Of a stretch of DNA of 64,000 bases, positions 6,934 to 64,000 are shown piece by piece. This DNA is from Pecten maximus. Its lineage: Eukaryota. The stretch covers positions 36,642,001 through 36,706,000 of the forward strand of contig NC_047020.1 in NCBI RefSeq assembly GCF_902652985.1. Direction: 5' to 3'. Numbering within the stretch: position 1 is the first letter of the stretch; the number at the start of each line of letters is the position of its first letter. Under the pieces are notes generated by a model. The model had not been told where the DNA came from. It did not search any database and saw nothing but the letters and a program-made list of their open reading frames with translations. A program made the translations under genes and the position numbers.

Positions 6934-9492
6934 ACAAGAGATCCCAGAGGGATCTTGGCGCCCACCATTGAATGATCTTCATAGGTTCCATGTCAGATTG
7001 ATCTTTTCTCTTTTTTTTCTCCTTCCTCTTACTAATCTGTATGAATTGAGAAACATCCCTCCAGTGCCTTTTAAACAAGGGAACCTTATATATGAAATTT
7101 GAGATTTAGCGATAATGGTTGTCTGTCGACAATGTTTTCAGATTGTTCCGAAAATGCAATACGACGGACAAAGCAGAACCTACATTTACCTACACCTACA
7201 GAAAATTGAGAAAGATCCCTTGAGTACTTTTTCAGAAATAGCGATAACAAACTTCAATGGTCAAAATCCAAGATGGCTGCCTGTCGGCCATGTTGTTTTC
7301 GGATTGGTCCCAAAATGCAATATGCATAACTACAGACCACGGGGAACCTACATATGAAATTTGAGAAAGATCCCTTCAGTACTTTCTCAGAAATAGCGAT
7401 AACAAACTTCAATGGTCAAAATCCAAGATGGCTGCCTGTCGGCCATGTGTTTTTCGGATTGGTCCCAAAATGCAATATACATAACTACAGACCACGGGGA
7501 ACCTACATATGAAATTTGAGAAAGATCCCTTCAGTACTTTCTCAGAAATAGCGATAACAAACTTCAATGGTCAAAATTCAAGATGGCTGCCTGTCGGCCA
7601 TGTTGGTTACGATCCGTCTCAAAATGCAATATACATAACAACAGACCAAGGGTAACCTACATATGAAATTTGAGAAAGATCTCTTCCTTACATTCTCAGA
7701 AATAGCGATAACAAACTTCAATGGTCAAAATCCAAGATGGCTGCCTGTCGGCCATGTGGTTTTCGGATTGGTCCCAAAATGCAATATACATAACTACAGA
7801 CCACGGGGAACCTACATATGAAATTTGAGAAAGATCCCTTCAGTACTTTCTCAGAAATAGCGATAACAAACTTCAATGGTCAAAATTCAAGATGGCTGCC
7901 TGTCGGCCATGTTGGTTACGATCCGTCTCAAAATGCAATATGCATAACAACAGACCAAGGGGAACCTACATATGAAATTTGAGAAAGATCCCTTCAGTAC
8001 TTTCTCAGAAATAGCGATAACAAACTTCAATTGTCAAAATCCAAGATGGCTGCCTGTCGGCCATGTTGGTTACGATCCGTCTCAAAATGCAATATACATA
8101 ACAACAGACCAAGGGTAACCTACATATGAAATTTGAGAAAGATCCTTTCAGCACTTTCTCAGAAATAGCGATAACAAACTTCAATTGTCAAAATCAAAGA
8201 TGGCTGCCTGTCGGCCATATTGTTTTCCGATTGGTTCCAAAATGCAATATGCATAACTACAGACCAAGGGGAACCTACATACGTATGAAATTTGAGAAAG
8301 ATCTCTTCAGTACTTTCTTAGAAATAGCGATAACAAACTTCAATTGTCAAAATACAAGATGGCTGCCTGTCGGCCATATTATTTTCCGATCCGTCTCAAA
8401 ATGCAATATGCATAACAACAGACCAAGGGGAACTTACATATGAAATTTGAGAAAGATCTCTTCAGTACGTTCTCAGAAATAGCGATAACAAACTTCAATT
8501 GTCAAAATCAAGATGGCTGCCTGTCAGCCATGTTGTTTTCCGATCGGTCCCAAAATGCAATATGCATAACTAGGGACCAAGGGTAAACTACATATGAAAT
8601 TTGAGAAAGATCCTTTCAGTACTTTCTCAGAAATAGCGATAACAAACTTCAATTGTCAAAATCAAGATGGCTGCCTGTCAGCCATGTTGTTTTCCGATCG
8701 GTCCCAAAATGCAATATGCATAACTAGGGACCAAGGGTAAACTACATATGAAATTTGAGAAAGATCCTTTCAGTGCTTTCTCAGAAATAGCGATAACAAA
8801 CTTCAATTGTCAAAATCAAGATGGCTGCCTGTCAGCCATGTTGTTTTCCGATCGGTCCCAAAATGCAATATGCATAACTAGGGACCAAGGGTAAACTACA
8901 TATGAAATTTGAGAAAGATCCTTTTAGTACTTTCTCAGAAATAGCGATAACAAACTTCAATTGTCAAAATCCAAGATGGCTGCCTGTCGGCCATGTTGCT
9001 TTCCGATCAGTCCCAAAATGCATTATGCATAACTAGAGACCAAGGGGAACCTACATATGAAATTTCAGAAAGATCCCTTTTGTACTTTCTCGGAAATAGC
9101 GATAACAAACTTCAATGGTCAAAATACAAGATGGCTGCCTGTCGGCCATGTTGCTTTCCGATCAGTCCCAAAATGCATTATGCATAACTAGAGACCAAGG
9201 GGAACCTACATATGAAATTTCAGAAAGATCCCTTTTGTACTTTCTCGGAAATAGCGATAACAAACTTCAATGGTCAAAATACAAGATGGCTGCCTGTCGG
9301 CCATGTTGCTTTCCGATCAGTCCCAAAATGCATTATGCATAACAAGGGACCAAGGGAAACCTACATATGAAATTTGAGAAGGATTCCTTCAGTACTTTCT
9401 CAGAAATAGCGCTATCAAGAATTGTTTACGGACGGACGGACCACGGACGCAAGGCGATTTGAATAGCCCACCATCTGATGGTGGTGGGCTAA
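6934..9492 (-). mobile_element. HINE-like non-autonomous Helentron/Helitron carrying a tandem core array
   Basis: One end is ACAAGAGATCCCAGAGGGATCTTGGCGCCCACC (short palindrome plus sub-terminal IR). The other has a (GGAC)n microsatellite and the hairpin AGCCCACCATCTGATGGTGGTGGGCTAA. Same layout as the + strand element at 56285-56938. Confidence 0.8.
7075..9420 (+). repeat. ~154-155-bp satellite-like tandem array (~15 units) inside the HINE
   Basis: Repeating ATATGAAATTTGAGAAAGATCCCTTCAGTACTTTCTCAGAAATAGCGATAACAAACTTCAA...AAGATGGCTGCCTGTCGGCCATG. Confidence 0.95.
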
Positions 9493-31537: not shown

Positions 31538-31963
31538 TGTTAAAGGTTAGAAATTATAAAAATGTCCGTGTTAGATTAAATACAGGAATTTAATCTTAAT
31601 GTAACGGTATAGCCAGCAGATGGACTCTGTGTGTAGAAGTGATGCGGAGACAGTCTCCATATATCAATAGATAACCGGTGGGGTCTGTTGACATCTAATT
31701 AGTGTATGCTGGAGAAGTAAGGGGCCTTATCAAATTGATATGGCATGTGCTACGGACCAGTGTACCTCAGAGTTGACCTTCCCAGGACACCAAATTTTTA
31801 TAAGTAATTAATCTGATAGGAACAGTAAAAACAAACGGTAGAGCTAAGTTTGGGCAGTCATAGACGAGGGTTGGCTCGGTTACACACTTTGTACTAAACG
31901 CTAGTAAAGACGACTGTGGAAAACATATATTAATGTGTTGATTGTCGTGGGTGTTGTGTAACA
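31538..31963 (+). repeat. 5' LTR (426 bp)
   Basis: TGTTAAAGG...TGTGTAACA. No difference from the 3' LTR found by eye. Confidence 0.97.
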
Positions 31964-31966
31964 TTT

Positions 31967-31984
31967 TGGTGGCAGCGGTGGGAT
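31967..31984 (+). promoter_or_regulatory. Primer-binding site complementary to the tRNA-Leu 3' end
   Basis: TGGTGGCAGCGGTGGGAT, 3 nt after the LTR. Its reverse complement ATCCCACCGCTGCCACCA is the typical 3' end of animal tRNA-Leu(AAG/TAG). Confidence 0.85.
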
Positions 31985-32151
31985 ATATCTGTCAGACACA
32001 TCTCTGGGATATATTGAACACATTTCTGGGATATATGTATCTTAATTAAGTGTTTTAATTTTGGTATATCAAGAAACTGTTATTGGCTATTATAGCTGTT
32101 TGAGCCAAAGGAGGTCTATGAACTGTATGCAGTAACATATCACAGTGCAGT

Positions 32152-35100
32152 ATGGCAACTGAGGAAAGCCTGATAGAACTAATGACTGGTGAACAGATAG
32201 AGGAACAAGTTGATGAAGAAGTAACTATTATGACAAAGGTTTTAAAAGACAACACTGAAATGAAGGAATTTGAAATGCGAAAAATGGAAATTGAATTAGA
32301 AAAACAACGCTTAGAATTTGAAAAATACAAAATAGACCGGGAATTACAGCATCAATTGCGTCTGAAAGAACTTGAACTTGAACTTAATCGTGGCACAACA
32401 AAAACTGAAGCCACAACGAAAATTCCAGTGAAACTTAAATTACAACCATTTAATCATGACAAAGAAGATGTGCTAACATATTTGGATGAATTTGAGTCGG
32501 TATCCAAGCAAGCAGGATGGGAAGAAGATATCAAAGTCTTACATTTGAAATCCTTACTTGTTGGAGATGCTCGCGAGATTGCTTCTCATTCTAGTAAAAC
32601 ATATGAAGATCTACGGAAGGCCTTAATTACACGATTCAGCAAAAGGAGGTCTGATTATTTCGGAATGTTATCTGGTATCCAAAGAAACCACAATGAAACA
32701 TACCGAGGACTTATGGCACGCATAGATCAATATTTGGCAAGGTTCATCGGAGAGCGTGATACTATTCAGTGTTTTCGAGAAGAGTACTTCTTGAAGGCGT
32801 TGCCAGGAGCACAGTCCCAGTGGATACGTAGAAACCAGGGAACAGGGACGGTGGTAGAGGCTGCAGAGGATTATATAGTACCTCAAAGAGATCAGAATAG
32901 GCGGAGTGCTGGGCATATACCTATGGGATCGGGAGGTACGAATGCCAGTAAAGTGGTTTCACAGGAAATGTCGCGATTTGCTGGCGAGGGCAAGAAGAAT
33001 GTGGTGTGCTTTAAGTGTAAGGCACGGGGCCATATTGCCCGGGACTGTCCGAGTAATAAAAGACAAGGAGGACAAAATCAGGCTTCGTATCTTGTTAGGC
33101 AAACAATTGGGGAGCGACTGATTTGTGTGCCAGGTCTTGCAGACGGACAGGAAATAAGCTTTGTCAAGGATACTGGGGCTGATGTGACATTAATTCGTGA
33201 GGAATTTGTCAAGCCAAGTGCTATCCTTGAAGGACAGTGTATGACGTTATACACGGCGATTGGCCAGCCGTTTCAAGCAAAACGGGCAATCGTGGATCTT
33301 GACCTTCCATGCTTTAAGGGTCATGCTCAAGTTGGTGTCGTGTCGGACTTGGCTGCTGAAGCTTTACTAGGAATGGATATTCTTGACAGGTCAGTTATGG
33401 CAGTGACAAGGGCACAGTCCAAGCAGCAAGAGGCTGAGGAGCATGTCGTGGAGCGTGAAATGGAGGTAACAAAAGTACTACCTCGAAACATTATGGAAGA
33501 AAGATCGGAGGAAAGGCTGGGTGTTGATGAGCTGTCAACGGTCAACTCAGAGGAACTTTCCAAGTTACAGCGAGAGGATGAGTCGCTGAGTAAAATTAAT
33601 GCGAAGTCCTTGTCGTCAGCTGAGGAAGCTGATGAAGATGATGTTGCTTTTTATTGGGAACATGACATTCTAAGGCGAAAGTGGAGGACTGGAGATGGTA
33701 AAACAGCTGGAAAACAGTTGGTACTTCCCAAATCACTGAGACAAGCTGTCATTAAACTTGCCCATGACAGACCTTTAGCAGGACATCTTGGACAAGAGAA
33801 AACTAAGCAAAGAGTCCTACAATCATTTTATTGGCCTGGAATGTTCTCGGATATAAAAAGTTACTGTCAAACGTGTGATGTATGTCAAAAAGTGGCTAGA
33901 CGTGACCACCAGAGAGCTCCAATGGTCATTGTGCCAAGAGTTGGACAGCCATTTTGGAAAATTGCTATGGACATTGTCGGACCGTTACCAATGACAAAAT
34001 CAAGGAATAGGTTCATCCTAACTGTAGTTGACGATGCAACGCGATATCCTGAGGCATTCCCATTACCTAGCATTGAGGCGGAGAGAATTGCTACAAAACT
34101 CATGGAAATGTTCAGCCGTGTAGGTATCCCAAAAGTTATCTTGACAGATCAAGGTACTAATTTCACCAGCAAGTTACTGACGCACCTCTACAGAAACATT
34201 GGGATCAAAGGTATCAAAACAACTCCATACCACCCTCAAACAAATGGCACAGTAGAACGGTTTAACGGTACTCTGAAAGCCATGCTAAAGAAGCTGTGCG
34301 GAGGTAATGTCGAGCAATGGGATGAGTTACTGCCCTATACCCTGTTTGCATACCGTGAAGTCCCACATGAGGAAACTGGATTTTCTCCTTTCGAGCTTCT
34401 GTACGGTTGGCCTGTTCGTGGACCTTTACAAGCACTAGAATCAATCATGACAGGAGAAGGAGACACCCCAAGATCTGTGGTGGACCATATAGTAAACATA
34501 CGAGAAAAACTTCAAGATGTCAGTCAGGTGGTTCAAAATAATTTAGCAGAAAGGAAGGCCAAGGTCAAAGTATGGTACGACAAAAGGGCAACTGAAAGAT
34601 CATTCAGTCCAGGGGATGAAGTTCTTGTTCTACTCCCGACGGAGAACGCCAAGATGCTAGCACACTGGAAAGGACCATATAGAGTGACTGAAAGGGTCAA
34701 CAATGTCAATTACAAGGTCAACGTCGGAGGTCGCAGAGGAATAGTCACGTATCACGTGAACCTGCTTAAACGGTACTACCGTGCTATGTACATAGTTAGC
34801 AGAGTAGAGGGTGACGATGTTGGTCAGGAGGGAAAAATCTTTCATCCAAATGACTCGGAGGAGACAGTTAAGGATGTTAACGTCAACAAAAACGTAGGCA
34901 GTGACAAAGTGATGGAACTGTGGGCGTTGTGTGCTGATTTTGAGGATGTCTTTACGACAAGGCCAGGGAAGGCAACTGTAGTGGAACATGAGATAAAAAC
35001 TACATCAGAGATTCCCATAACACAACGGCCTTATAGGATTCCATACACTCAGCAGGCTGATGTAAAACAACAACTGGATGAGATGGCTGAGCAAGGCCTA

Positions 35101-36263
35101 ATCATACCGTCAAAGAGTCCATGGAGTTCACCAATAGTTTTGGTCAGAAAACGCGATGGAACGATTAGAATTTGTGTGGACTATCGAAAACTGAACAGCA
35201 TTACAGTGTTTGATGCTTACCCAACTCCCCGCATCGATAACATACTTGAGCAGCTGGGAAATGCTAGATATTTGAGCACTTTGGACTTAACTAAGGGTTA
35301 TTGGCAAGTGCCTCTTTCTGAAAATTCCAGAGAAAAATCTGCATTTATAACGCCGTTTGGACTCTACGAGTTCACCGTCATGCCGTTTGGAATGAAAACA
35401 GCTCCAGCAACTTTTGCACGACTCATGACACAACTACTTCAAGGTCTAAGCCATGTTTTGGCTTATTTTGATGACATCATCATACACTCCAACAGCTGGG
35501 AGGAACATATGCAGGATGTTCAGGCTGTGATGGGGCGACTTAGGGAGTATGGCTTCACTATTCGACCAAGTAAGTGTAGTTTGGGGCAGGAAGAAGTAAG
35601 GTGCCTAGGACACCTTGTTGGAGGTGGCAAAATTCAGGCAGATCCGGACAAAATCAAAGCAATGATTGAATTTCCTTTACCTATCACAAAGAAACAGGTA
35701 CGTGGATTTCTAGGGATGACAGGATATTACAGAAAGTTCATCAAAGATTTTGCTGAGCTGGCAGCACCGCTTACCGACCTTACTAAAAAGGGAGCGCCAA
35801 CAAAGGTCATCTGGAATGAACATGCTACCAAGGCTTTCAAAGACCTAAAGTCTAAAATGGTATCAGCACCAGTGCTGTCAATGCCAAACTTTGAGGAGCA
35901 GTTTGTTCTGCAAACAGACGCCAGTGACATCGCTATTGGCGCTGTTTTGACACAAAAGCAAGCAAGTGAAGAACACCCTGTAGCATACCTTAGCCGGAAG
36001 TTACTGCCGAGGGAAAGGAACTATGCCACGATAGAGAAAGAATGCCTGGCCATAGTTTGGGCAATCGAGTCCGTTGCACATTTTGTAAGTGGTACAAACT
36101 TCGTCGTGGAGACCGCCACAATCCATTAGTGTGGTTAAACCAGGTTCGAGACAAGAACCAGCGCCTATTGAGGTGGGCACTAGCTTTACAGCAATACAAC
36201 TTTTGCGTGAGATACCGTAAAGGAAAGGATAATGCCAATGCAGATGGATTATCACGTATTTAG
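32152..36263 (+). CDS. gag-pol: Gag-Pol polyprotein (capsid, CCHC knuckle, protease, integrase, RT, RNase H); 1-nt frameshift at ~36115
   Basis: Zinc knuckle CFKCKARGHIARDC (33007-33048). Protease KDTGAD (~33169). Integrase H-x6-H...CDVC, DIVGP, TDQG, VERFN and WKGPY. RT LDLTKGYWQV, MPFG and YFDD (35464-35475). RNase H TDASD and EKECLA. The 1325-aa ORF ends VETATIH*, while the shifted frame continues HNPLVWL...RLLRWALALQQYNF...NANADGLSRI*. Confidence 0.95.
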
Positions 36264-36295
36264 GACTTGGTTAATTTTCAATTAACTTGGTAAAT

Positions 36296-36497
36296 GCATT
36301 CAAACTGGACAATAAGTGAATTCAAATTGGACAATAAGTGAATTCAAATTGGACAATAAGTGTATTCAAAAGTGGACAATAAGTGAATTCAAATTGGACA
36401 ATAAGTGCATTCAAATTGGACAATAAGTGTATTCAAAAAGTGGACAATAAGTGTATTCAATGTGAACAGTAAGTCTATTTGAGTTGGATATTAAGTA
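36296..36497 (+). repeat. 22-bp tandem array in the retrotransposon 3' UTR
   Basis: Seven good and two degenerate copies of G(A/C/T)ATTCAAATTGGACAATAAGT. Confidence 0.9.
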
Positions 36498-36646
36498 ATT
36501 TTATTATGGATTTATTTGGATTCAGCTTTAAGCGTGAGTATTGTCTACTTCTTCTGTATAATCTTTATAATGTAACCGTGTACCGAGTCAACCTATCAGA
36601 TAGATATCAGTCCTATAAACTTCTCTTGTTATAGAAGTTTATTTTT

Positions 36647-36656
36647 AGGAGGGAGG
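36647..36656 (+). promoter_or_regulatory. Polypurine tract
   Basis: AGGAGGGAGG directly abutting the 3' LTR, preceded by a T run. Confidence 0.9.
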
Positions 36657-37082
36657 TGTTAAAGGTTAGAAATTATAAAAATGTCCGTGTTAGATTAAAT
36701 ACAGGAATTTAATCTTAATGTAACGGTATAGCCAGCAGATGGACTCTGTGTGTAGAAGTGATGCGGAGACAGTCTCCATATATCAATAGATAACCGGTGG
36801 GGTCTGTTGACATCTAATTAGTGTATGCTGGAGAAGTAAGGGGCCTTATCAAATTGATATGGCATGTGCTACGGACCAGTGTACCTCAGAGTTGACCTTC
36901 CCAGGACACCAAATTTTTATAAGTAATTAATCTGATAGGAACAGTAAAAACAAACGGTAGAGCTAAGTTTGGGCAGTCATAGACGAGGGTTGGCTCGGTT
37001 ACACACTTTGTACTAAACGCTAGTAAAGACGACTGTGGAAAACATATATTAATGTGTTGATTGTCGTGGGTGTTGTGTAACA
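36657..37082 (+). repeat. 3' LTR (426 bp)
   Basis: Direct repeat of 31538-31963. Confidence 0.97.
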
Positions 37083-52243: not shown

Positions 52244-53096
52244 TGATAAGGTAAACAGCTAGATATCTGCCTCTAAACTGTTAAACATAATCAAAGTACG
52301 AAATGCTGATGTCGGTATCGAAAATCGATAATATATAAGCAAATACAACAAATATTGATCAATGACGGAAATTTTAATACACGATTCGTGGAAATATTAA
52401 GACATAACAGGAAAAAATGAATTAATTTAGTCCGGAAGATTATATTTTCTTTAGACATGTACAAAATTAGAATAATATACCATGTATTGCTTTTATTCAA
52501 TATTCACCTCAAACGTTCGAGTTTGAATCGTTCAGTCAATATCCCCTTTTGAAATGTCCCTTAGACGTCCAATTTATGTATTAAACCACTCTATAACTGA
52601 ATGTTCAACTGTGAGAAGCCGTTAGGTATTTAAATTTTATTTCAGTGCAAGCTATAAAAACAGCTGTTATAGTCGTGTGCATTATCTGTGCCAATGTCGG
52701 AACGCTCCATAACCCCGTCCAAGTGTATTTGGTGGCTCAGTGTGTCATGTCGACGTCCTCAATATGCAGAAACCGTCCCGCACTAGTCCGGGGCCCTCTC
52801 TTATTTATATTTAACTGCTACAGAGGAGAATCATTTTAAAACGTTAAATCTGAAAGGTCTCTATGACCAGCATGCTTAGCTACAATTCTGAAATCAACAA
52901 CATACCATGACCTTAATTTTCTAGATATCACCCTTAAATTTACTGTACTGTCTTCTAAACAAGACACGAAACATATCTCGTCGTAAAATGTATAAACAAA
53001 ATTAACTTATCTTAAAGTTATCGTGCTAGTACGGAAGCCGAATAGGACCAATGAAAAAAATAGACTTAGTTGGTATCATTAAAAAATAAATAAAAA

Positions 53097-53555
53097 ATCT
53101 CGTATATACGAGTTTCTTTCTCGTATATACGAGATTATTTCTCGTAATAACGAGATTATTTCTCGTATATACGAGTTTATTTCTCGTATATACGAGATTA
53201 TTTCTCGTAATAACGAGATTATTTCTCGTATATACGAGTTTATTTCTCGTAATAACGAGATTATTTCTCGTATATACGAGTTTATTTCTCGTATATACGA
53301 GTTTATTTCTCGTAATAACGAGATTATTTCTCGTATATACGAGTTTATTTCTCGTAATAACGAGATTATTTCTCGTATATACGAGTTTATTTCTCGTATA
53401 TACGAGATTATTTCTCGTATATACGAGTTTATTTCTCGTATATACGAGATTTTTTCTCGTATATACGAGATTATTTCTCGTATATACGAGTATATACGGG
53501 ATTATTTCTCGTATATACGAGTTTCTTTCTCGTATATATGCGAGTTTATTTCTCG
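53097..53555 (+). repeat. 21-bp subterminal tandem array with palindrome CTCGTATATACGAG (~21 units)
   Basis: Unit TTATTTCTCGTATATACGAGA, with variant CTCGTAATAACGAG. Confidence 0.95.
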
Positions 53556-53664
53556 TGTAGAATTTTTTCTTGTTTTTTCGAGTTTTTTTTTCTTGTTTTT
53601 TCGAGATTTTTTTTCTTGTTACGACAATCGCACGGTTTTCGGCACGTAATGGTAAAGGCTGAGA

Positions 53665-53736
53665 ATGACGGAAGACTCGTTTTACGATTATGTGGACTCG
53701 CTTGGGGTTGCAAGTGATATATTACGGGATCAGAAG
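53665..53736 (+). CDS. Exon 1 of SAM-Ubl-HECT E3 ligase gene (MTEDSFYDYVDSLGVASDILRDQK)
   Basis: ATG at 53665, 24 open codons, consensus donor AAG|GTAAGT at 53737. It joins in phase 0 to 60927 to give ...LRDQK|IDQYVIQLMSEEEMKKYIPLHGDRMKI, a SAM-domain pattern. Confidence 0.7.
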
Positions 53737-54164
53737 GTAAGTGATTATGTACATAGGCCTATTTTATTTTCCTTCTAATGAATAGGTCTAGTGAAATGTC
53801 ACATGCGGATCATGAGTGATGTAAATGATATAATCATGTAGCTAGGCCTACATCCCGTCATCCCCGAAATGGCGGCGGACCTACACGCTTCAAATGATAT
53901 ATGATGCAGCTACTTTTTATTACTGATTGATTGCCCTCAAAATTCGAAATAAGAAGCACCGAGATATATCTCCGAAAACTGTTAGCACTCGTGTAAACAT
54001 TATCCACGTGTGTGGCGATGTTATTGTATGGCGACGTTAGTCGCTAACTTGAAATGTGTATGTTCAATATACATGTGTGACAATGACAATTGTTTTATTC
54101 TCAGTGAACCTAAATTTTATACGTTCACGCGACTTCCGACAGATGGATAATAATAATAATAATA

Positions 54165-56137
54165 ACTAGATTTGATCAGGATCAAAGCACGAGATTTCCA
54201 GCTAGGAAAAGATCGCAGACATGCGTTCGTTCTGACGGACGCTTTTGTACGTTTTACCTACGATTTCTATTCGTTTTCTCTTCGCTTCCCTTCTTTAACT
54301 GATCATTTGACTTTTAACCGTACCTGTAACTATTTTTTTCATCTCATATGAAAGAGCATGGACCACTGAGAAGGAGAGTGTAAATATTTTGGTAATCGGA
54401 TAAAAAATTACGGAGATATGGCACTTTGAAAAGTTAAAAGTTTTTCCCGCCAAAATTCAAAATTCAGGCAAAAATGCTTCTCTTCCGTCATCTATACACC
54501 TATAGACTTGATTTTTGGCACAACAATAGCATATGCGAGTGGCTACAAAACTTATTACTTTTCATTGACCTTGACCTTCATTCAAGGTCAAATAAAAAAA
54601 ATCAAAATTTGAAAAAAATCTTTCTATCGTTTTTTCCCTTAAACTATCAGTGCATCTTGTAGTTCATAGACAGGACATACTTTTCTCTCTAACATGCATG
54701 TCAATGTCCCAGAACGAGTTCAAATCGAGGTAAAACTTTTAAAATTCAAAATGAGGTTTTTTTTAATTACATTTTAAAGTGCGTGATTGATGAAGATGAA
54801 CTGTGCAAGTTTTATGGTCGTGCGATGAAAAATGAAGAAGAAATGGCACTTTGAAAATTTTTCGTTTTCCCGCCATAATTCAAATTGATATTTAGCACAG
54901 TGATAGCTTGTACGAAGGGCTACAAACTTGGTTACTTTTCATTTATCTTGACCTTCGTTCAAGGTCACAGAGGTCAAATAATCAAAAATCAAAATTTTCA
55001 AATTCTTTTAATTTTTTTATTTTGATTCTCTTTAGAAGAAAATGCTCTTATGAAGATGTATGCAACGTTTCAAGGTCAAATCATCAAAAAAAACAACAAC
55101 AAAAAAACCCGAAGATAAAAGTATGGTATACACGATACACAGCAAGGTATACACGGTACTGGATGCACGATATTTTTGCGGGATACATAATATACGATAC
55201 AGTAAACACAAAACACGGTACGGTATACACGATACTTTTTACGAAATACACGGTATTTGGTACGAGCTGCACGGTACGGTATGCATGATACATGATACAC
55301 GATACACTGTATGGTATACACGATACTTGGTACGAGATACACAGTACAGTATACACAATACACGGTACGGGAGAGACGATACACTGTATGGAATACAAGA
55401 TATACGGTTCAGTTAACACGATAAAAGGTACGAGACACACGATTCACTGTTATACGGTATACATGGTACGGGATACACGATACACGGTACGGGATAGATG
55501 ATACATGTTACTGTATACATGATACAATACGGGATACACGATACATGGAACGGGATACACAGTACAGTAAACACGATACAAGGTACGAGATACACGATTC
55601 ACGGTACAGTAAACACGATACAAGGTACGAGGTACACGATTCACGGTACAGTAAACACGATACAAGGTACGAGGTACACGATTCACGAAGGTCAAATGAT
55701 ACAAAATAAAAAAAAATCAAATTATCTTTAAAACGGTTTATTTTCATTGTATATGAAAGAAAACGTTATTTTGAAGGTGTTTGCAGCGTTTGAAAGTCAA
55801 ATCATCAAATATAACTCGGAAAAAAAACCTTTGGAAAACATTTTCTCGCCAACATTAAATATTATCCTCAATCTACGCTTAAAATGTTTTCTTCCAATAT
55901 TCTGATACCTATAGACTTGATGATTAGCACATCTATAGCATGAATGTTTAACCTTGACCAACGATTTTTATGATCAAGGACACGGTTCAAAATCAAATGA
56001 CGGTTTAAGAAGTGAAACGAAGAGAAAACGAAGAGAAAACGTAGGTAGAACGTACAAAAGCGTTCGTCAGAATGATAAAATGTCTGCGATTATTTCCTAG
56101 ATGGAAATCCAGTGTTTTGATCTTGATCAAATCTAGT
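54165..56137. mobile_element. ~2-kb element with ~130-bp imperfect TIRs and an internal GATACACGGTAC-type repeat array (55125-55690)
   Basis: ACTAGATTTGATCAGGATCAAAGCAC...GTGTTTTGATCTTGATCAAATCTAGT. Inner TIR parts GCTTTTGTACGTT / AACGTACAAAAGC. Recurrent TTGACCTTCATTCAAGGTCA motif. Confidence 0.75.
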
Positions 56138-56284
56138 ATATATATGCTATTATTTGTGTTCCAAAGAAATTATCGGCGGATTCTTATAACAACAACTGTC
56201 GGTAATAAAAAGTAATGTTTTACTTACATCAGGTAATTTCCTACGGCATGTATATCAGGTAGAAACAGTCACCGTTGCCTATTA

Positions 56285-56938
56285 TTAGCTCACCTGCCCG
56301 AAGGGCAAGTGAGCTTCTGCCGTGGTGCTGAGTCCGTCGTCCGTCAATCCGTCGGTCCGTCTGGCGTCATTTTTTTCATTCAAACAACTTCTTCCCAATA
56401 ACCAAGAGGCCCAGGGACTTGATATTGGACCTGTAGCATACGGGTGTGAAGGACTACAAAGTTTGTTCAAAGAAATAACCTTGACCTTCATTCAAGGTCA
56501 CATGGGTCAAAAAGGCTATAATCTTCCAACGACTTCTCAATAACAAAGAGGCCCAGGGACTTGATATTGGGCCTGTAGCATGCTGAGAGGCCCACGGACT
56601 TGATATTGGGCCTGTAGCATGCTGAGATGTAGGGCTACCAAGTTTGTTCAAATAAATAACCCTGACCTTCATTCATGTTCACAGGGGTGAAACCAGCATA
56701 AATCTGTAAACAATTATTTTGCGATAGCCAACAGTCTCTGAAACCTGATATTATAGACAAATATTATGCTGGAATGAAGGACTAGAAAATTTATTGATAT
56801 GAAAAAGTAAGCATACACTGATATTTGAAAAAAAGAGGTAATCAGCATAGTAAAAAATCTATGTGTAGAAATGACCTCAATCAACGTCAAAGTTGGTGTA
56901 GAGCCAGGTGAGCGATACAGGCCCAGTGGGCCTCTTGT
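56285..56938 (+). mobile_element. HINE-like non-autonomous Helentron/Helitron
   Basis: 5' TTAGCTCACCTGCCCGAAGGGCAAGTGAGCT hairpin, (CCGT)n microsatellite, partial core repeats, and 3' CAGGTGAGCGA...AGGCCCAGTGGGCCTCTTGT. Confidence 0.85.
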
Positions 56939-56947
56939 ATCTTTTAA

Positions 56948-59367
56948 AGTGTACCCTGAACGTAAAGCGATAATCGAATATGTTATTCTTTGTAAACACA
57001 AAGAAGAATGTCGCAAACCGCATCAAAATCGGTTGGCCGAGTGCCGAGATATCGCACATCGAAGTATGGTGGCCAGTAGCATAGAGGACAGTGCGAACAG
57101 TAGCAGCACAAACATGTCTGAATACGATCTGGACATGAGATTTTAGGTTGTTGAATTTGGCGAAAATTGCCGACAAGAAGTCGGAATCCAACAATATAAG
57201 TTTAAGTTTAAAAAAAAAATTGTGAAATTGACTCTGAAATCTGAAATCTGATTAACACAGACTGGTGTAATAATCGGTCAATCACCAATAAATGTATATT
57301 AGTTATGTGTTTACCATTTCTTACTCATTACCAAAGAAAGGAACACAGCATCAACATTTTTATATAAAATAATGTGCCATTTCATTCGCAAATTAATATT
57401 CAAATAAACATACCAACAATACAACAGTTCTGGATACTCTGGTTTGTGAGAACAGACGAACACACATACAGTAAATTCATGCGTTATATTCTATACAAAA
57501 CCTGCTTCTAGTCATGAAGGACACTTAATTCAGAAAGTAATATATTATAATCATCATGATCTACAATAGACTAAATCTCTCCCGTATGAATATCAGTGTT
57601 GAAGTCTACAACAAACTTCTACATATACAGATTGTATCCCTTATTTTACATGCCATGGTCTCAGGGATTAAGGACGATTAAATGCTTGAGAAAGATATAA
57701 TTTATATACGATCGTTGTCAGTGAAATTATATAAAAGTGATTCGCAACAATTATAATATAATTGATACTTTCTGTACGGGTATAAAGCATACAGAGTAGC
57801 TACTTATTAAAACCATCATTTTAGCTCCTATTTTTATGATAAAAAACCTACAAATTATTTCATTGTGACTAATCATAATTAATACTAAAACTTATAAACT
57901 CGCAATGATTTTCGTGTATGATTTTTTTTTCAAATTTTATGTATTTTTTGCTATTTTTTTTTATTGTGTCATTATTGTGAAGTGATCCAGATCCTTGTGG
58001 TTTTGCTTTCCATTCGTGTCGCAAGTCATATCTTCACTTAAAAAGGGACTTCTTAACAGATGTATAAACATGTTCGGAGAATTACAAATTCTCAAGTTTG
58101 AATGGGATAGTATACCGCTAAACAATTACCAGGTGTGAAATTACGGTCCACAAGCTCGTCACACCTGTCTCTGCACCGCAGGTGTCTGTGATTTCTGGTG
58201 TTCTAATCGGCACACGCCGATAATTGCTTGTGAGTTCACGCGTTTGGTTTCTGTGCACTTCAAAAAAGTTCCGAAGACATGCTTTTACAGGTTGTACATA
58301 AATTGAGCTTGAATTTTATTAAGAATTGCGTTTATACTATAGGGAATACATTTTCAAGTTGTTGAAATCAAACACATTATTTTTGGAATTCAGTGAGTTT
58401 CGTTTTCCTTACAAACGAAAAAAAAATCGTATCTCAAAGGTTTGTCTATAGAGTAATTAACCAAAGTTACCTCATTTATATATATATATATACCCATGAT
58501 GTTGAAAAATTACTTTATGAATCTTGTCTGGGAGTTACTGATCTTTCATGGACACGTTTTATCAATTGCGGACAATTACCCAAAAAATCACAAATAACGG
58601 TATCATTGCTGTTTTGGCTAATAAAAAATTCAAAATGATTAGCATTTATTTCACATCTTGTATGAATTGCATTTTAAACTTGTATTACTAGAAGTATTAT
58701 AACCGAAATCAATACTGGTACATTTGTATGTAACAAACCGGTCATGCCCTCATAATAAACGGCCCGTTATTCAAATGTCATACATGTTACCAGAGACATA
58801 TATACAGTATCTGATGTTACAACGACCCGTTAAAATAAAAAAAAAATTAAATATACATGTTATATACGACCTGTTATAAAAGAAAATAAATAAGATGATA
58901 CACGTTGTATTTGGCCCGTTATAATAGAAAATTAGTAAGATGTTACATGTTGTACATGTATATGGCTCGTTATGAGAGAAAATTAGTGAGATGCTACATG
59001 TTATATATGGCCCGTTTAAAAAGAAAATTATATGTCCCTGGTTTCGGTAGCACTTGTTATTAACTAATTCACCAATATAACCCAGGGAGTTTATTTAGCA
59101 CTTTCATTTTTGTTGTCTTATTCGCATTAATTACAGGCACGTGTTCACATTTGTTTCTATATATTTCCTATAAGGCGGCTCCGATCGTGTTCAACCTGTG
59201 ACGTCACAGGTCAGAGGTCACCAAAACGAGGTATTCAGGTGTGTTTTCGAGAAAAATCGCAATTACTCGGTAATGGGTCGGCCGATTTTGATACAGTTTT
59301 CTGCATTCTGGTTTATTAATCAATACCAATAACATATTTAAATATATTTTTTCGTTCAGGGTACACT
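56948..59367. mobile_element. Kolobok-like non-autonomous DNA transposon (2.4 kb)
   Basis: 15-bp TIR AGTGTACCCTGAACG...CGTTCAGGGTACACT, with further imperfect sub-terminal IR (CATCAAAATCGG / CCGATTTTGAT). TTAA on both flanks (56944-56947, 59368-59371). No credible ORF. Confidence 0.8.
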
Positions 59368-59575
59368 TTAACAGCTGAAATATATAATAGCGTAATTACT
59401 GCCGAAGTGTTCTGGGTACGACTGTAATGTTCAGCGCTGTTTATTAAATCGGATAACACCTTAACTCAGTAGCAGTAACATTTTATACGCACATACGCAG
59501 CCCAACTTCCTGCGGCGGAGGTATGAAACGGGTCCCATTGCCGTCTATAATAACAATGTTCCCGGTGAAACTTCC

Positions 59576-59885
59576 TACGGGAGTGTATTAGGGCCACTAG
59601 AAAAATAAAATGTCGTACGTACGACTTACTATGTTGTACGTACGATTTACTATGTTGTACGTACGACTTACTATGTTGTACGTACGACTTACTATGTTGT
59701 ACGTACGACATACTATGTTGTACGTACGACTTACTATGTTGTACGTACGATTTACTATGTTGTACGTACGACTTACTATGTTGTACGTACGACTTACTTT
59801 GTTGTACGTACGACATACTATGTTGTACGTACGACTTACTATGTTGTACGTACGACTTTTAAAATCATATCGTACTACGACATAG
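59576..59885 (+). mobile_element. One end of an IS3EU-type element with a 21-bp palindromic array (~12 units)
   Basis: Terminus-like TACGGGAGTGTATTAGGGCCACT followed by (TATGTTGTACGTACGACTTAC)n. Partner TIR and TSD not found. Confidence 0.6.
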
Positions 59886-59901
59886 TAAGAGTCTCCATTT
59901 C

Positions 59902-60420
59902 TATGGGGCGGCTTGTCACTATTAATTAACAAAACTAGATATCCATAACTGAAATCAATAAATGAATTATGGACATCAATGATTAATCTCGAATATCAAT
60001 AATTGAATTATGCCTATGGATATCAGTGATTAATTTTGAATATCAATAATTGAATTATGGATATCAATAACTGAATTATGCCTATGGATATCAGTGATTA
60101 ATTTTGGATATCTATAAGTAATCGAATTATGGATATCAATGAATGAATTATAGATATCCATAATTCCAATTTTGGATTTGTGTAAATTTGAAACAATTCA
60201 AGATGTCGCAAATTTTTAACTTTGGATATCCAGAAATGAATTATACATATATCAATAATTCGAATTATGGATATCCAAAAGTCGAATTACGGATATCCGA
60301 AAATACATGAAATTATTGATATCCAATTTTTTTTATTTATGATATGAATTCGAATTATCGATATCCAAAATTCAAATCATGGATGTCTAGTTTTGTTTAA
60401 GTTTTGTATGGTGTCCCATA
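59902..60420. mobile_element. Non-autonomous IS3EU-type element with 6-bp TSD
   Basis: Ends TATGGG...CCCATA, exact TSD CATTTC (59896-59901, 60421-60426), inner IR AACAAAACTAGATATCCAT / ATGGATGTCTAGTTTTGTT, and internal ~21-bp GAATTATGGATATC repeats in both orientations. Confidence 0.8.
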
Positions 60421-60784
60421 CATTTCACATGGTTTCTCTTCTTGAACACGCATGTGATGCACTTATTAAAGAATTAATTGGATAACTACATGTACTATTA
60501 ATATTTTTAAGACGTGTAAGAGTATATACTTGACGAAACTTTGATACACATATCCCTCTATTCCACGTTACGCGGCGTAATTTACTGTACATCGCCGTAG
60601 AGCGTAATACCGCGTAACAGTGCTGTAATACACCGTAATATACACGTATCTCCCCGTAAATGTTTACGCCGTCTTACTGGACGGCTTTTCGCGAAAGTGG
60701 GACTGAGCCATAATGTACAGGTGTTACCCACCTTAAGATTTATGATGCCCGAACCGAACCTATACTTACGGGTATGTTATGAGA

Positions 60785-60886
60785 ATATCACCGATGTTAT
60801 CTTGATATCACCGATATTATCTTGATATCATCGATATTATCTTGATATCACCGATATCATCTTGATATCACCGATATTATCTTGAT
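60785..60886 (+). repeat. 20-bp tandem repeat (~5 units)
   Basis: GATATCACCGATATTATCTT repeated just upstream of the splice acceptor. Confidence 0.85.
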
Positions 60887-60926
60887 GATTGTATCTTCTA
60901 AATCGATGTGTCTTATTTGATTTCAG

Positions 60927-62713
60927 ATTGACCAATATGTCATACAACTGATGTCCGAAGAGGAAATGAAAAAATACATACCGTTGCACGGAGACAGAAT
61001 GAAAATCCGAAGGTACATAAGAAATCAGGACAAACATAAAAATATGGGATTGTCCAGGCAAGGGGAGCTAATTTCGAAGTTAAGATCAAAACTTGAAAAT
61101 AGATTGTCCCCAGAAAATTCTGCTTGCGCAGAAGTGCTCGCACTAGACATTTGACAGGAAATGACCATGCTATGAAGACCAATCGACTGATCGAAATCGG
61201 CTGGATCCACATTAGTGGTACGACACGCACTCAGATAAGAACAAAGCAAGGCGGTGGAACGAGGAAGGTTACAGTTACAAAATCAGCTACTAAAAAGGAC
61301 ATCCATGACCTAGCAGTGGGATTGTTCTTTCCAGACGGGGTTTCCTCCAAGGGAAGTAAGTCTGACTTCACGTTTGACGTCTCTGATTATCAAGAGGCAC
61401 CATTTGAAGACCATGTAACAGTGGGGGAGTTGTACACTGCTACAAAGTTGAACATTCTGAGATTTTATTTGACATCAACTGCCAAAGATACAGATGATGA
61501 TTCACTGCCGGATTTGGAAGGCGATTTGTCGGCTCTAAAAGATATCGAAACATTTAATGATGAACCCATGGATACAACATGCACCAACATGATAGCGGAG
61601 GCTGCAACAACGGCAGGTATTTTGAATGCGATTGATATAATGGAGGATATCGAAATAGACCCAAATATAAATGATAGAAATGAAGAATTAAACGACACTC
61701 TACTTTCCGAAATACTTCCGTCCACTGAACAAACTCTGCGTCTGCATCGCGGACATATCCTTAAAGACCTGAACCTTGCAATCAAGAATGTGGATCCATT
61801 TCGAGATATCATAACTGTTCAAATTGTTCTCCCGAATGGAATTATTGAGGTAGCGGAAGATGCAGGGGGAGTTACAAGGGATGCCCTAACAGAATATTGG
61901 GAAACATTTTATGAACAAAATACAATGGGTGGCGATTTCAAAGTTCCTTGTATCCGTCATGACTATGGCACAGACGAATGGACTTCAGTCTCCAAGGTCA
62001 TTGTATTCGGTTGGAAATCTGTAGGATATTTCCCTATAAGGTTGTCTCTTCCTTTTGTGGAAAGTTGCATGTTTGGGAAACACACAGCAGATCTCAAAAC
62101 GGAGTTTTTAAAAACATTACCAAAGGCTGACAGTGATGTTCTGAAAGGCTCAATGTCCAATTTCCAAGCAGTTTCGTTAGATGACCTGACGGATGTCCTC
62201 GACACACATGATGTTAAGACAATTCCGAACCCAGGAAACATTGAACGCCTTGTGAGTGAGATCGCACACAAGGAACTTATTCAAGCTGGCATGTTTATTA
62301 TCAACTGTTGGCATCCAGTGATGAAGCATATGAAGATGATCACTCATGAACGGTTGGTAATCATGTATGACCAACTGGTCCCATCACCAAGACGCGTGGC
62401 GCAGCTATTTAAATTCCCGGAACACATGGCTCAGGAAGAGTTAACCACCGCAAACCACATGAAGCGCTTTGTCAGGGAACTAGATCACGGCAACCTCGGG
62501 AACTTTCTACGATTCTGTACAGGATCAGACATTCTCTTATGCAAACACATACAAGTCAATTTCGTAGTCAATGAAGGTCTCGGGAGGCGACCAGTAGCAC
62601 ACACATGTTCCTGTATGTTGGAATTGCCAAAAAAATACGAGTCATATCCTGTTTTCAGATCAGAATTCCTAACGATTCTGAAAGCTGGTGTTTGGGTAAT
62701 GGACATAATATAA
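60927..62713 (+). CDS. Exon 2 of SAM-Ubl-HECT E3 ubiquitin ligase-like gene (G2E3-like HECT); frame break at ~61103-61151
   Basis: Acceptor TTTGATTTCAG|ATT at 60926/7, followed by the rest of the SAM domain. Then IEIGWIH...GGGTRKV...LFFPDG (ubiquitin-like fold by inference) and an acidic linker. HECT N-lobe LRLHRGHI...EVAEDAGGVTRD. HECT C-lobe FLRFCTGSD...RRPVAHTCSCMLELP with catalytic Cys at 62606-62608. Confidence 0.85.
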
Positions 62714-63625
62714 ACAAATACTCATACTTACATTGTGTACCAATATCTAGCTATTTTCAGCGGGGCTTATGTCATTGCCCTGGTATTCCTTAGCTATCAG
62801 TGATATTCATGTTCAATGGTGTTAATGACATCTTTAAAATATATACCGTCGAATTGGCACAATTTGTATCATATAGTTTCACATCTAATGGTACATGTCG
62901 TCACAAAAGAGTGCTGGATTTTGCATAGAACATCTTTGAGACCCAGTACTATAGTTTTTAAAATGACATGTACTTTTTTTTTTTAATTTAGTAGGGAACA
63001 GATGGTTCTCATAATATCTGTCGTGTTTAGTTCGTGTTCTTTAAAAACGATTGATAGTTAGTCCCGCGAATTTTAAATTTGAATATAACATTGCAATATG
63101 TGAGTTAGTGATACACATAACATGCATGGCAAATGCTTTCATAATCGTATGCCAATTATCTTAAGCATCTTATTAATCTTTTTATAGGTATTACACTGTT
63201 CATTTAAAACTTCTGGTTGAGCCACAATAAGCAGTGGTTAAAAACAATTGGATAAAATGGACTGTCAACGGTTCCTAATCGGTGACCTGTACATGCTTCT
63301 ATAGACTTGTCGTTATTGATTAAAAGCTAACTATATCATTTGTCTATGTCTTCTTATCTGTTTCAATCCTCATACTTTGTCAAAACATTTGGCCAAGCAC
63401 AAAATGAACATATTTCGATACACAAATCCCGCATACATCTGTTTGTGCAGTATGGAATGTATACACAATTCAATAATATAATGTCACGACCAGCATTTGT
63501 GAGAATAAAATCTATTGCATAGCACAATGATACGAGTACAAGATTCTATTTACCACAGGATAAAAGCGATGATCTCAATGTATTTCCCTATATTTAAGTC
63601 ACTTGCTCAGTTTAGCTTCGCTGAG

Positions 63626-64000
63626 TACGGAAGCGTATAGTGACCCCCCGAAACCAACTTATAAATGATTAAATATTAGTTTGTTATGACGTATGACCTA
63701 CTTAAAAGTTGTCTTCACGACTTTTATATAATTTTTAATCACACTAGCGACTGAAATGAAGCTTCTATATCATGATCTCGTTTTCATTACATCAGTTAAG
63801 TTGTCATGTGACATAATTTGTGTCAATTTTGTGACTACCGAATTTCCGACAGAAAAATCATTATCGTATCACAATATTCATCAAATAACCCGGTTTGACA
63901 ACTTGTAGAGTAATATCACGTTAAAACGGCTTAACCATTTAATTAAACCAAATGCTATGTTACAAAAATGGCTGTCAGACTCCAGTCGTTTTAACTTGAT
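63626..64000 (+). mobile_element. Possible left terminus of another IS3EU-type element
   Basis: TACGGAAGCGTATAGTGACC shares its first 9 nt with the terminus at 53030. The rest runs off the window. Confidence 0.35.

Follow-up and report, generated by a model that had tools for sequence, protein, structure and literature searches.

A split gene predicted to encode a SAM/ubiquitin-like/HECT E3 ubiquitin ligase occupies positions 53665 to 62713 of a 64,000-nt stretch of Pecten maximus DNA (contig NC_047020.1; the whole stretch, G000:C6:36642001-36706000 in a 918-Mb genome, is referred to as the window). The question raised by this locus is whether such a gene belongs to the host or to a mobile element and, in the latter case, on what the ligase would act. 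The ligase gene sits within a complete IS3EU/GingerRoot DNA transposon of 13,723 bp, the right end of which lies 2.7 kb beyond the window (extended coordinates denote the G000:C6 position minus 36,642,000). Judged from sequence, and with a probability of roughly 0.5, we propose that this second gene of the transposon encodes a predicted SAM/ubiquitin-like/HECT E3 ligase acting on its own transposase complex.

The ligase gene lies within an IS3EU/GingerRoot transposon

The termini, TACGG..CCGTA, constitute the TA..TA terminal inverted repeats (TIRs) that are a feature of IS3EU/GingerRoot elements, and the 6-bp target-site duplication (TSD) TGCTAG on both flanks is a further feature of this superfamily. 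The left TSD (53024..53029, plus strand) is followed by the unique part of the left TIR with its TA terminus (53030..53097, plus strand), the left end being identical to the right end over 104 bp, and by a subterminal array at 53098..53556 that contains 18.7 copies of a 21-bp period with a palindromic core (90% match). The right 21-bp array and TIR span extended 66274-66752, and the TIR terminates at 66752 directly before an exact copy of the left TSD at extended 66753-66758; both this right end and its TGCTAG had been predicted by an initial annotation made from the letters of the window. Palindromic 21-bp arrays of ~19 copies are thus present at both ends of the element, and the left array likely comprises putative transposase binding sites together with a promoter region.

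The 17-nt terminus has 124 exact matches in the genome (66 forward, 58 reverse), whereas a control pattern has none. Among 100 terminus matches listed there are ~33 apparent end pairs, and of the 20 pairs that were fetched, all of them non-autonomous elements of 0.2 to 7 kb, 13 are flanked by a perfect 6-bp TSD as against 0 of 380 cross-pairs; given these two controls, terminus match and TSD are not due to chance. The left half of a small nested inverted-repeat element lies at 63626..64000 (the element ends at extended 64359); its ends are of the IS3EU type, a matching TSD is absent, and it also occurs in non-autonomous derivatives at 80-85% identity. Subterminal arrays were observed in at least nine families, the 21-bp period (two helical turns) being kept while the palindromic cores differ in sequence.

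Past the ligase gene, a spacer (62714..64000) leads over the window end, beyond which the element continues with a two-exon DDE transposase gene that reads from the right end and is convergent to the ligase gene; an IS3/integrase-like DDE transposase 3' of the window had likewise been anticipated. Exon 1 (extended 65400-66194, minus strand) encodes a helix-turn-helix (HTH) and the DDE core D128, D187 and E228, and exon 2 (extended 64569-64895, minus strand) comprises 108 codons. The protein matches Pfam rva_4 and an HTH and contains no zinc-binding domain, i.e. it is an integrase-like DDE protein without HHCC, and by hand count its core is identical at 85 of 115 residues to Repbase IS3EU-1_CGi_2p as printed in the portion of the PMC10045372 supplement consulted. 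In termini, TSD and transposase the element agrees with the definition of IS3EU/GingerRoot in the consulted text of PMC10045372, and it belongs to this known superfamily. The TIR, TSD and transposase, together with the repeated pairing in unrelated families described below, uphold the initial view that the ligase gene is transposon cargo rather than a host gene, and we regard the identity of the element and the cargo status of the ligase as very nearly certain.

Structure and lesions of the ligase gene

Ligase exon 1 (53665..53736, plus strand; 72 nt, 24 codons) encodes the first two SAM helices and ends AAG/GTAAGT. It is separated by a phase 0 intron of 7,190 nt (53737..60926, plus strand), which contains nested repeats, from exon 2 (60927..62713, plus strand), which encodes the rest of the SAM domain, a basic helix, the ubiquitin-like domain, an acidic linker and the HECT domain. 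All coordinates given for this gene at the outset hold, namely the ATG at 53665, the exon end at 53736, the acceptor end at 60926, the in-phase join and the predicted N-terminus, as does the HECT domain with an intact PVAHTC motif (62591-62608; catalytic-position Cys codon at 62606-62608), which scores above the Pfam HECT cut-off at an E-value of 9.5e-6.

A stop at 61152-61154 closes the exon-2 frame; since the HECT frame extends without a stop from 61103 to 62713, a frameshift must lie in 61103-61151. The length of about 619 aa previously proposed for the restored protein fits the loss of one base, and a larger deletion of 3n+1 is just as compatible, given that homologues have a longer linker. 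A small intron was considered and rejected: 21 GT-AG candidates would restore the frame, but paralogues are coding there and two contigs from two studies span the site without gap or joint. An assembly error was likewise rejected, as the same frameshift is carried by contigs from two studies and by C816, a second copy of the element; a slippery heptamer for programmed slippage was not seen by eye at the frameshift.

At the family level the splice is sound. In the C18 paralogue, removal of a 5,812-nt intron located at the same codon yields a product identical to the annotated protein P0006, which its source labels as scallop, and exon 1 of C18 (28 codons) and its C3 equivalent (22 codons) lie after the left array; C10 shares the acceptor, but a coding exon 1 was not found beside its array. 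In 44 database homologues 18-40 residues precede the splice point, and several start with intron-like text just before it; these sequences are consistent with a conserved intron position in the ligase family. Within the intron, a nested element at 54165-56137 has inverted arms of 135 nt (86%) and contains a 7/21-bp array, and a solo end of another IS3EU family at 59576-59858 has a C3-like TAC terminus followed by 12 copies of a 21-bp array, its partner end not being seen. A 2.4-kb deletion derivative with ligase exon 1 is found at L215 (G000:C12:2107518-2109918), where a 10-bp deletion has removed the splice donor.

In the transposase gene of the window element the last 13 codons of exon 1 and the splice donor are gone through a ~200-bp deletion, which is common to C816 and absent from L061, so that this copy has no intact transposase gene and is not autonomous. 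It is therefore dead twice, with a frameshifted ligase and a transposase that lacks its splice donor, and neither protein is made in full. C816, which is 98% identical to this copy, lies beside a different right flank and shares both the ligase frameshift and the transposase deletion; its interpretation as a second haplotype was rejected, since the right flank differs from the TIR onward. Because two sites carry the same two lesions, we infer that the broken element has moved at least once on a borrowed transposase supplied from outside. We read the window element as a two-gene IS3EU/GingerRoot transposon that is no longer autonomous, and it matters mainly as a pointer; intact pairs are offered by C18, with P0006 as the ligase, and by the L079 family, with P0243.

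Predicted SAM, ubiquitin-like and HECT folds of the ligase family

A structure model of the intact C18 paralogue P0006, built from 97 sequences with a mean predicted local distance difference test score (pLDDT) of 84.8, consists of five helices (residues 2-66), followed by a basic helix and, at 112-218, a beta-grasp domain; a disordered linker then leads to a two-lobed domain (305-633). In a wide structural search the C-terminal, two-lobed domain matches the HECT domain of UBR5 with a Z of 22.8 (root-mean-square deviation (rmsd) 4.0, 316 residues aligned), and Foldseek finds HUWE1 at an E of 4e-12. The HECT lobes are modelled mostly above pLDDT 90, and Pfam HECT matches 48 of 48 relatives at E up to 1; the domain is divergent, with 11-23% identity to solved HECT structures. 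The Cys at the catalytic position is invariant in 97/97 homologues and aligns with the catalytic motif of UBE3C and HUWE1, Trp is found at -6 in 93/97, and the WVMDI tail is strongly conserved. From these sequence traits, catalytic activity of the ligase in the intact families is probable.

The five N-terminal helices, with pLDDT mostly above 90, resemble a SAM domain (Z of 7.8 to tankyrase, rmsd 2.3, 61 of 63 residues); tankyrase and BICC1 together give Z of 7.5-7.8 over 61-62 of the 63 residues, and a separate N-terminal model agrees. Profile matches in the PDB to positions 2-66 include the SAM chains of USH1G, ANKS4B and tankyrase (best E 0.05), and Pfam SAM_3 is reached by 3 of 48 relatives (best E 0.03). 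Each of these lines is modest on its own, and together with the HHalign comparison given below they point to a predicted SAM domain at the level of the family; the SAM domain claimed for the window is upheld in that sense, a Pfam SAM call being absent for the window's own exon-2 piece. The ubiquitin-like domain has a best Z of 9.8 (rmsd 2.3, 80 residues aligned) to a Polycomb ULD complex, near-tied with other beta-grasp domains: residues 115-220 score Z 8-9.8 to many of these, rows 5-10 of the Atlas structure search have template modelling (TM) scores of 0.52-0.64, and RAWUL, the top row, is separated from unrelated ubiquitin-like domains by no more than about 1 Z. Atlas feature searches gave only leads under 0.9. 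The models thus support SAM, ubiquitin-like and HECT folds at the family level.

The ligase is paired with the transposase across families

Two further families, C18 (13,466 bp) and C10 (13,979 bp), are represented by complete elements, each bounded by its own TIRs and TSD, and a third, C3, has matching ends. The TIRs of the three differ, whereas the 21-bp arrays and the convergent ligase/transposase layout are kept, and their ligases are only about 30-45% identical to that of the window. From 50 ligase matches in the genome, 38 loci were kept (12 were dropped as further pieces of the same loci), and 19 of the 38 face a transposase within 20 kb with ~0.002 expected per locus, one having a transposase upstream; this count used 32 of 145 transposase hits, chosen by eye as top hits or for their nearness to a ligase hit. 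Most of the unlinked loci are short fragments full of stops or are situated on short contigs. In metagenome data (80 ligase loci, 31 of which have at least 2 kb downstream), a convergent transposase is found downstream at 23 of these 31 as compared with 1 of 15 upstream. Ligase and transposase also co-diverge: across 19 pairs of the two proteins, a Mantel test that does not correct for shared hosts gives r 0.43, with 0 of 10,000 permutations.

In all 10 pairs formed by five ligases, the proportion of synonymous differences (pS 0.75-0.86) exceeds that of replacement differences (pN 0.32-0.50), synonymous sites being saturated and replacement sites not; the HECT domain is under purifying selection. 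Database searching found 189 homologues, and the 120 listed come from bivalves, an acorn worm, many fish, frogs and a beetle; the C3 row, mis-spliced in the homologue alignment, was ignored. No closer host parent of the ligase was found among the 50 genome matches. The pairing of ligase with transposase is family-wide and holds in unrelated families, and the ligase probably functions as part of the transposon rather than being a captured host gene. The phased 21-bp subterminal arrays are likewise likely to be putative transposase binding sites across families.

Possible targets of the ligase

Under the two-component interpretation, each end array would drive one gene inward, so that both proteins are made together, and the transposase would bind the palindromic 21-bp arrays. 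Recruited to the transposase through its SAM and ubiquitin-like domains, the ligase would ubiquitinate it by way of the HECT Cys, which may clear the complex after insertion or cap transposase levels. A distant IS3EU family of the same genome (C8:44146225-44161596, with L223 and L079) bears on such docking. This element of 15,372 bp has a perfect TSD and an open transposase frame, and its multi-exon ligase, P0243, contains SAM, ubiquitin-like, zinc-finger and HECT domains, with Pfam SAM_1 and HECT above cut-off; the SAM and ubiquitin-like N-terminus of P0243 is homologous to that of the window family (HHalign 91.8%). For the first 81 residues of the transposase of this family, 9 of 10 PDB rows are SAM-domain proteins (best E 0.09). 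Since a SAM domain is present on the ligase and a SAM-like segment on the transposase, the two C8-family sequences suggest that the ligase may dock on the transposase. The transposase complex is accordingly the target we rate highest, although as the main target it falls slightly short of even odds. A profile comparison of the SAM-like transposase N-terminus with the SAM domain of the window-family ligase is weak (1.9%).

Several observations weigh against a ligase that acts on its own transposase. The transposase of the window's clade has no SAM domain, so that the SAM-SAM link cannot apply as such to this clade; nine metagenome transposases linked to the window ligase family have no Pfam SAM and no visible SAM, and a transposase with a SAM-like N-terminus was found just twice among database proteins. 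Residue -4 of the ligase is Met in 92/97 homologues and not the Phe that ligation by Rsp5 requires (PMC3738095, as far as consulted), and the HECT domain of the related G2E3 is reported to be non-functional in the consulted part of PMC3673628 (section 16). The predicted junction 53736/60927 has its counterpart in the C18 splice that yields P0006, but a spliced contig was not seen for this copy in runs that were only guessed to be RNA and whose contigs are possibly DNA; the two exons were aligned to separate references, where a splice is visible only as a loose end, and none appeared, while unspliced read-through contigs were found, one across the donor and one across the acceptor. The ligase may also be dispensable, as some families seem to manage without one. 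A 12-row transposase clade with no ligase detected within 8-18 kb includes a family with tyrosine-recombinase remnants and a recently spread family (L068:184 onward, L069:147 onward; ~13 hits, ~10 kb) with an intact intronless transposase, two compared copies of which are 99.6% identical and whose right end was not located; no ligase or other second gene was detected in it with a profile that also missed the distant P0243, and for that reason such absences weigh little. Complete IS3EU copies of 6.8 and 7.1 kb with TSDs (L075:3033-9844 and L100:97-7231) likewise have no ligase that we could find. Broken DUF3504/tyrosine-recombinase frames are present in both, in the same orientation as the transposase, and represent either cargo or an old nested insertion. 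A label test on a quick tree gave 13 changes, with 76-77 of 500 shuffles as low, and was not used because the labels are faulty: seven 'ligase-free' rows have ligase hits below the coverage cut, and L079 has the distant ligase.

The most serious competitor, which we consider unlikely, is counter-silencing, in which the ligase would join host SAM polymers or Polycomb-type complexes through its SAM and ubiquitin-like domains, ubiquitinate silencing factors and keep the element open. SAM-mediated polymerisation is known from Polyhomeotic-type proteins. The ligase SAM is kept where the transposase has none, and four Polycomb RAWUL entries (5fr6, 2na1, 3gs2 and 5jh5) are among the top ubiquitin-like matches; the RAWUL lead over USP11, ATG12 and other beta-grasp folds, however, is no more than about 1 Z, and the SAM matches are tankyrase, BICC1, USH1G and ANKS4B rather than Polycomb proteins. 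Also in its favour are fungal IS3EU elements with TET/JBP genes that are thought to undo methylation silencing (PMC12730594, in the portion consulted).

Absence of the -4 Phe, the very divergent HECT sequence (11-23% identity to solved structures) and the G2E3 precedent (PMC3673628 section 16, as consulted) would accord with a non-catalytic partner, whose HECT domain serves as a scaffold or as an E2/ubiquitin sponge and which acts as a structural second subunit. Against this, the Cys is invariant in 97/97, the WVMDI tail is itself strongly conserved, the lobes are modelled mostly above pLDDT 90, and in Rsp5 a lost -4 Phe can be compensated by an aromatic residue at another position, according to the consulted text of PMC3738095; we therefore hold this alternative to be improbable. 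Passive carriage of a captured host gene is largely refuted and very improbable. It could be argued from the host gene fragments found in plant GingerRoot elements (PMC6839031, part consulted), from the 19 of 38 ligase loci without a linked transposase in the hit lists and from the broken ligase of this copy, but the ligases are whole genes of constant place and orientation in families whose ligases are only about 30-45% identical to that of the window, they are under purifying selection and co-diverge with the transposase, no closer host parent is among the 50 genome matches, and the unlinked loci are mostly short stop-ridden fragments or on short contigs. We thus retain the ligase acting on its own transposase complex as the preferred explanation. 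More generally, and more tentatively, many animal IS3EU elements could be two-component machines with their own HECT ligase, docked through SAM on the transposase or on host Polycomb-type silencers (as a SAM/RAWUL-like mimic), in which case a large part of the uncharacterised, divergent HECT genes annotated in bivalves, fish, frogs and beetles would be transposon genes.

Other features of the window

A Gypsy-type long terminal repeat (LTR) retrotransposon at 31538-37082 has two identical LTRs of 426 bp and a frame of 1,335 codons, with the integrase placed before the reverse transcriptase, an order that we take to be that of the Gmr1 group. At 7201-9418 a 155-bp unit is present in 14 tandem copies (93% match).

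Relation to known systems

The closest known element is Repbase IS3EU-1_CGi of the Pacific oyster (PMC10045372 and PMC6839031, in the parts consulted), which has in common with the scallop element the TA..TA termini, the 6-bp TSD and an integrase-like DDE domain without HHCC. The terms HECT and ubiquitin have no match in the text of these two papers that was available, and the ligase gene is thus undescribed there; the names IS3EU-1_CGi_2p and IS3EU-4_CGi_2p suggest that Repbase annotates a first protein in the oyster elements. Fungal IS3EU elements with alpha-kinase and TET/JBP genes (PMC12730594) resemble the scallop element in that an accessory enzyme gene stands opposite to the transposase, and differ in cargo, which in the scallop is SAM/ubiquitin-like/HECT; HECT is unmentioned in the portions of that paper and supplement consulted. 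Accessory enzymes on IS3EU elements are hence a known theme. Among ligases, the class IV HECT group (UBR5, G2E3 and GL-Metazoa; PMC3673628 section 16) is similar in that UBR5 is the best structural match in the wide search and the HECT domain is divergent, but the ligase described here is without the PHD/RING fingers of G2E3 or a UBR box, and transposons are not mentioned in the consulted text of PMC3673628. Our literature search found no paper linking IS3EU/GingerRoot with a HECT gene, Repbase Reports and Kojima 2019 (Genes Genet Syst), which may name it, lying outside the search; a member of this known superfamily with a standing ligase gene was in that scope not found described in print.

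A ligase kept under selection across diverged families would imply an undescribed layer of transposon control or of host conflict, and would re-label many 'uncharacterised HECT' genes of aquatic animals as mobile. Should the two-component interpretation be true, these genes would constitute mobile E3 ligases of a class marked by an unusual Met/Trp tail. Such an arrangement has parallels in the two-protein Harbinger transposons and in RAG1 with its RING ligase, in which a second protein or a ligase module travels with a DDE transposase, whereas the transposase superfamilies and the partner folds of these systems differ from those of the IS3EU pair.

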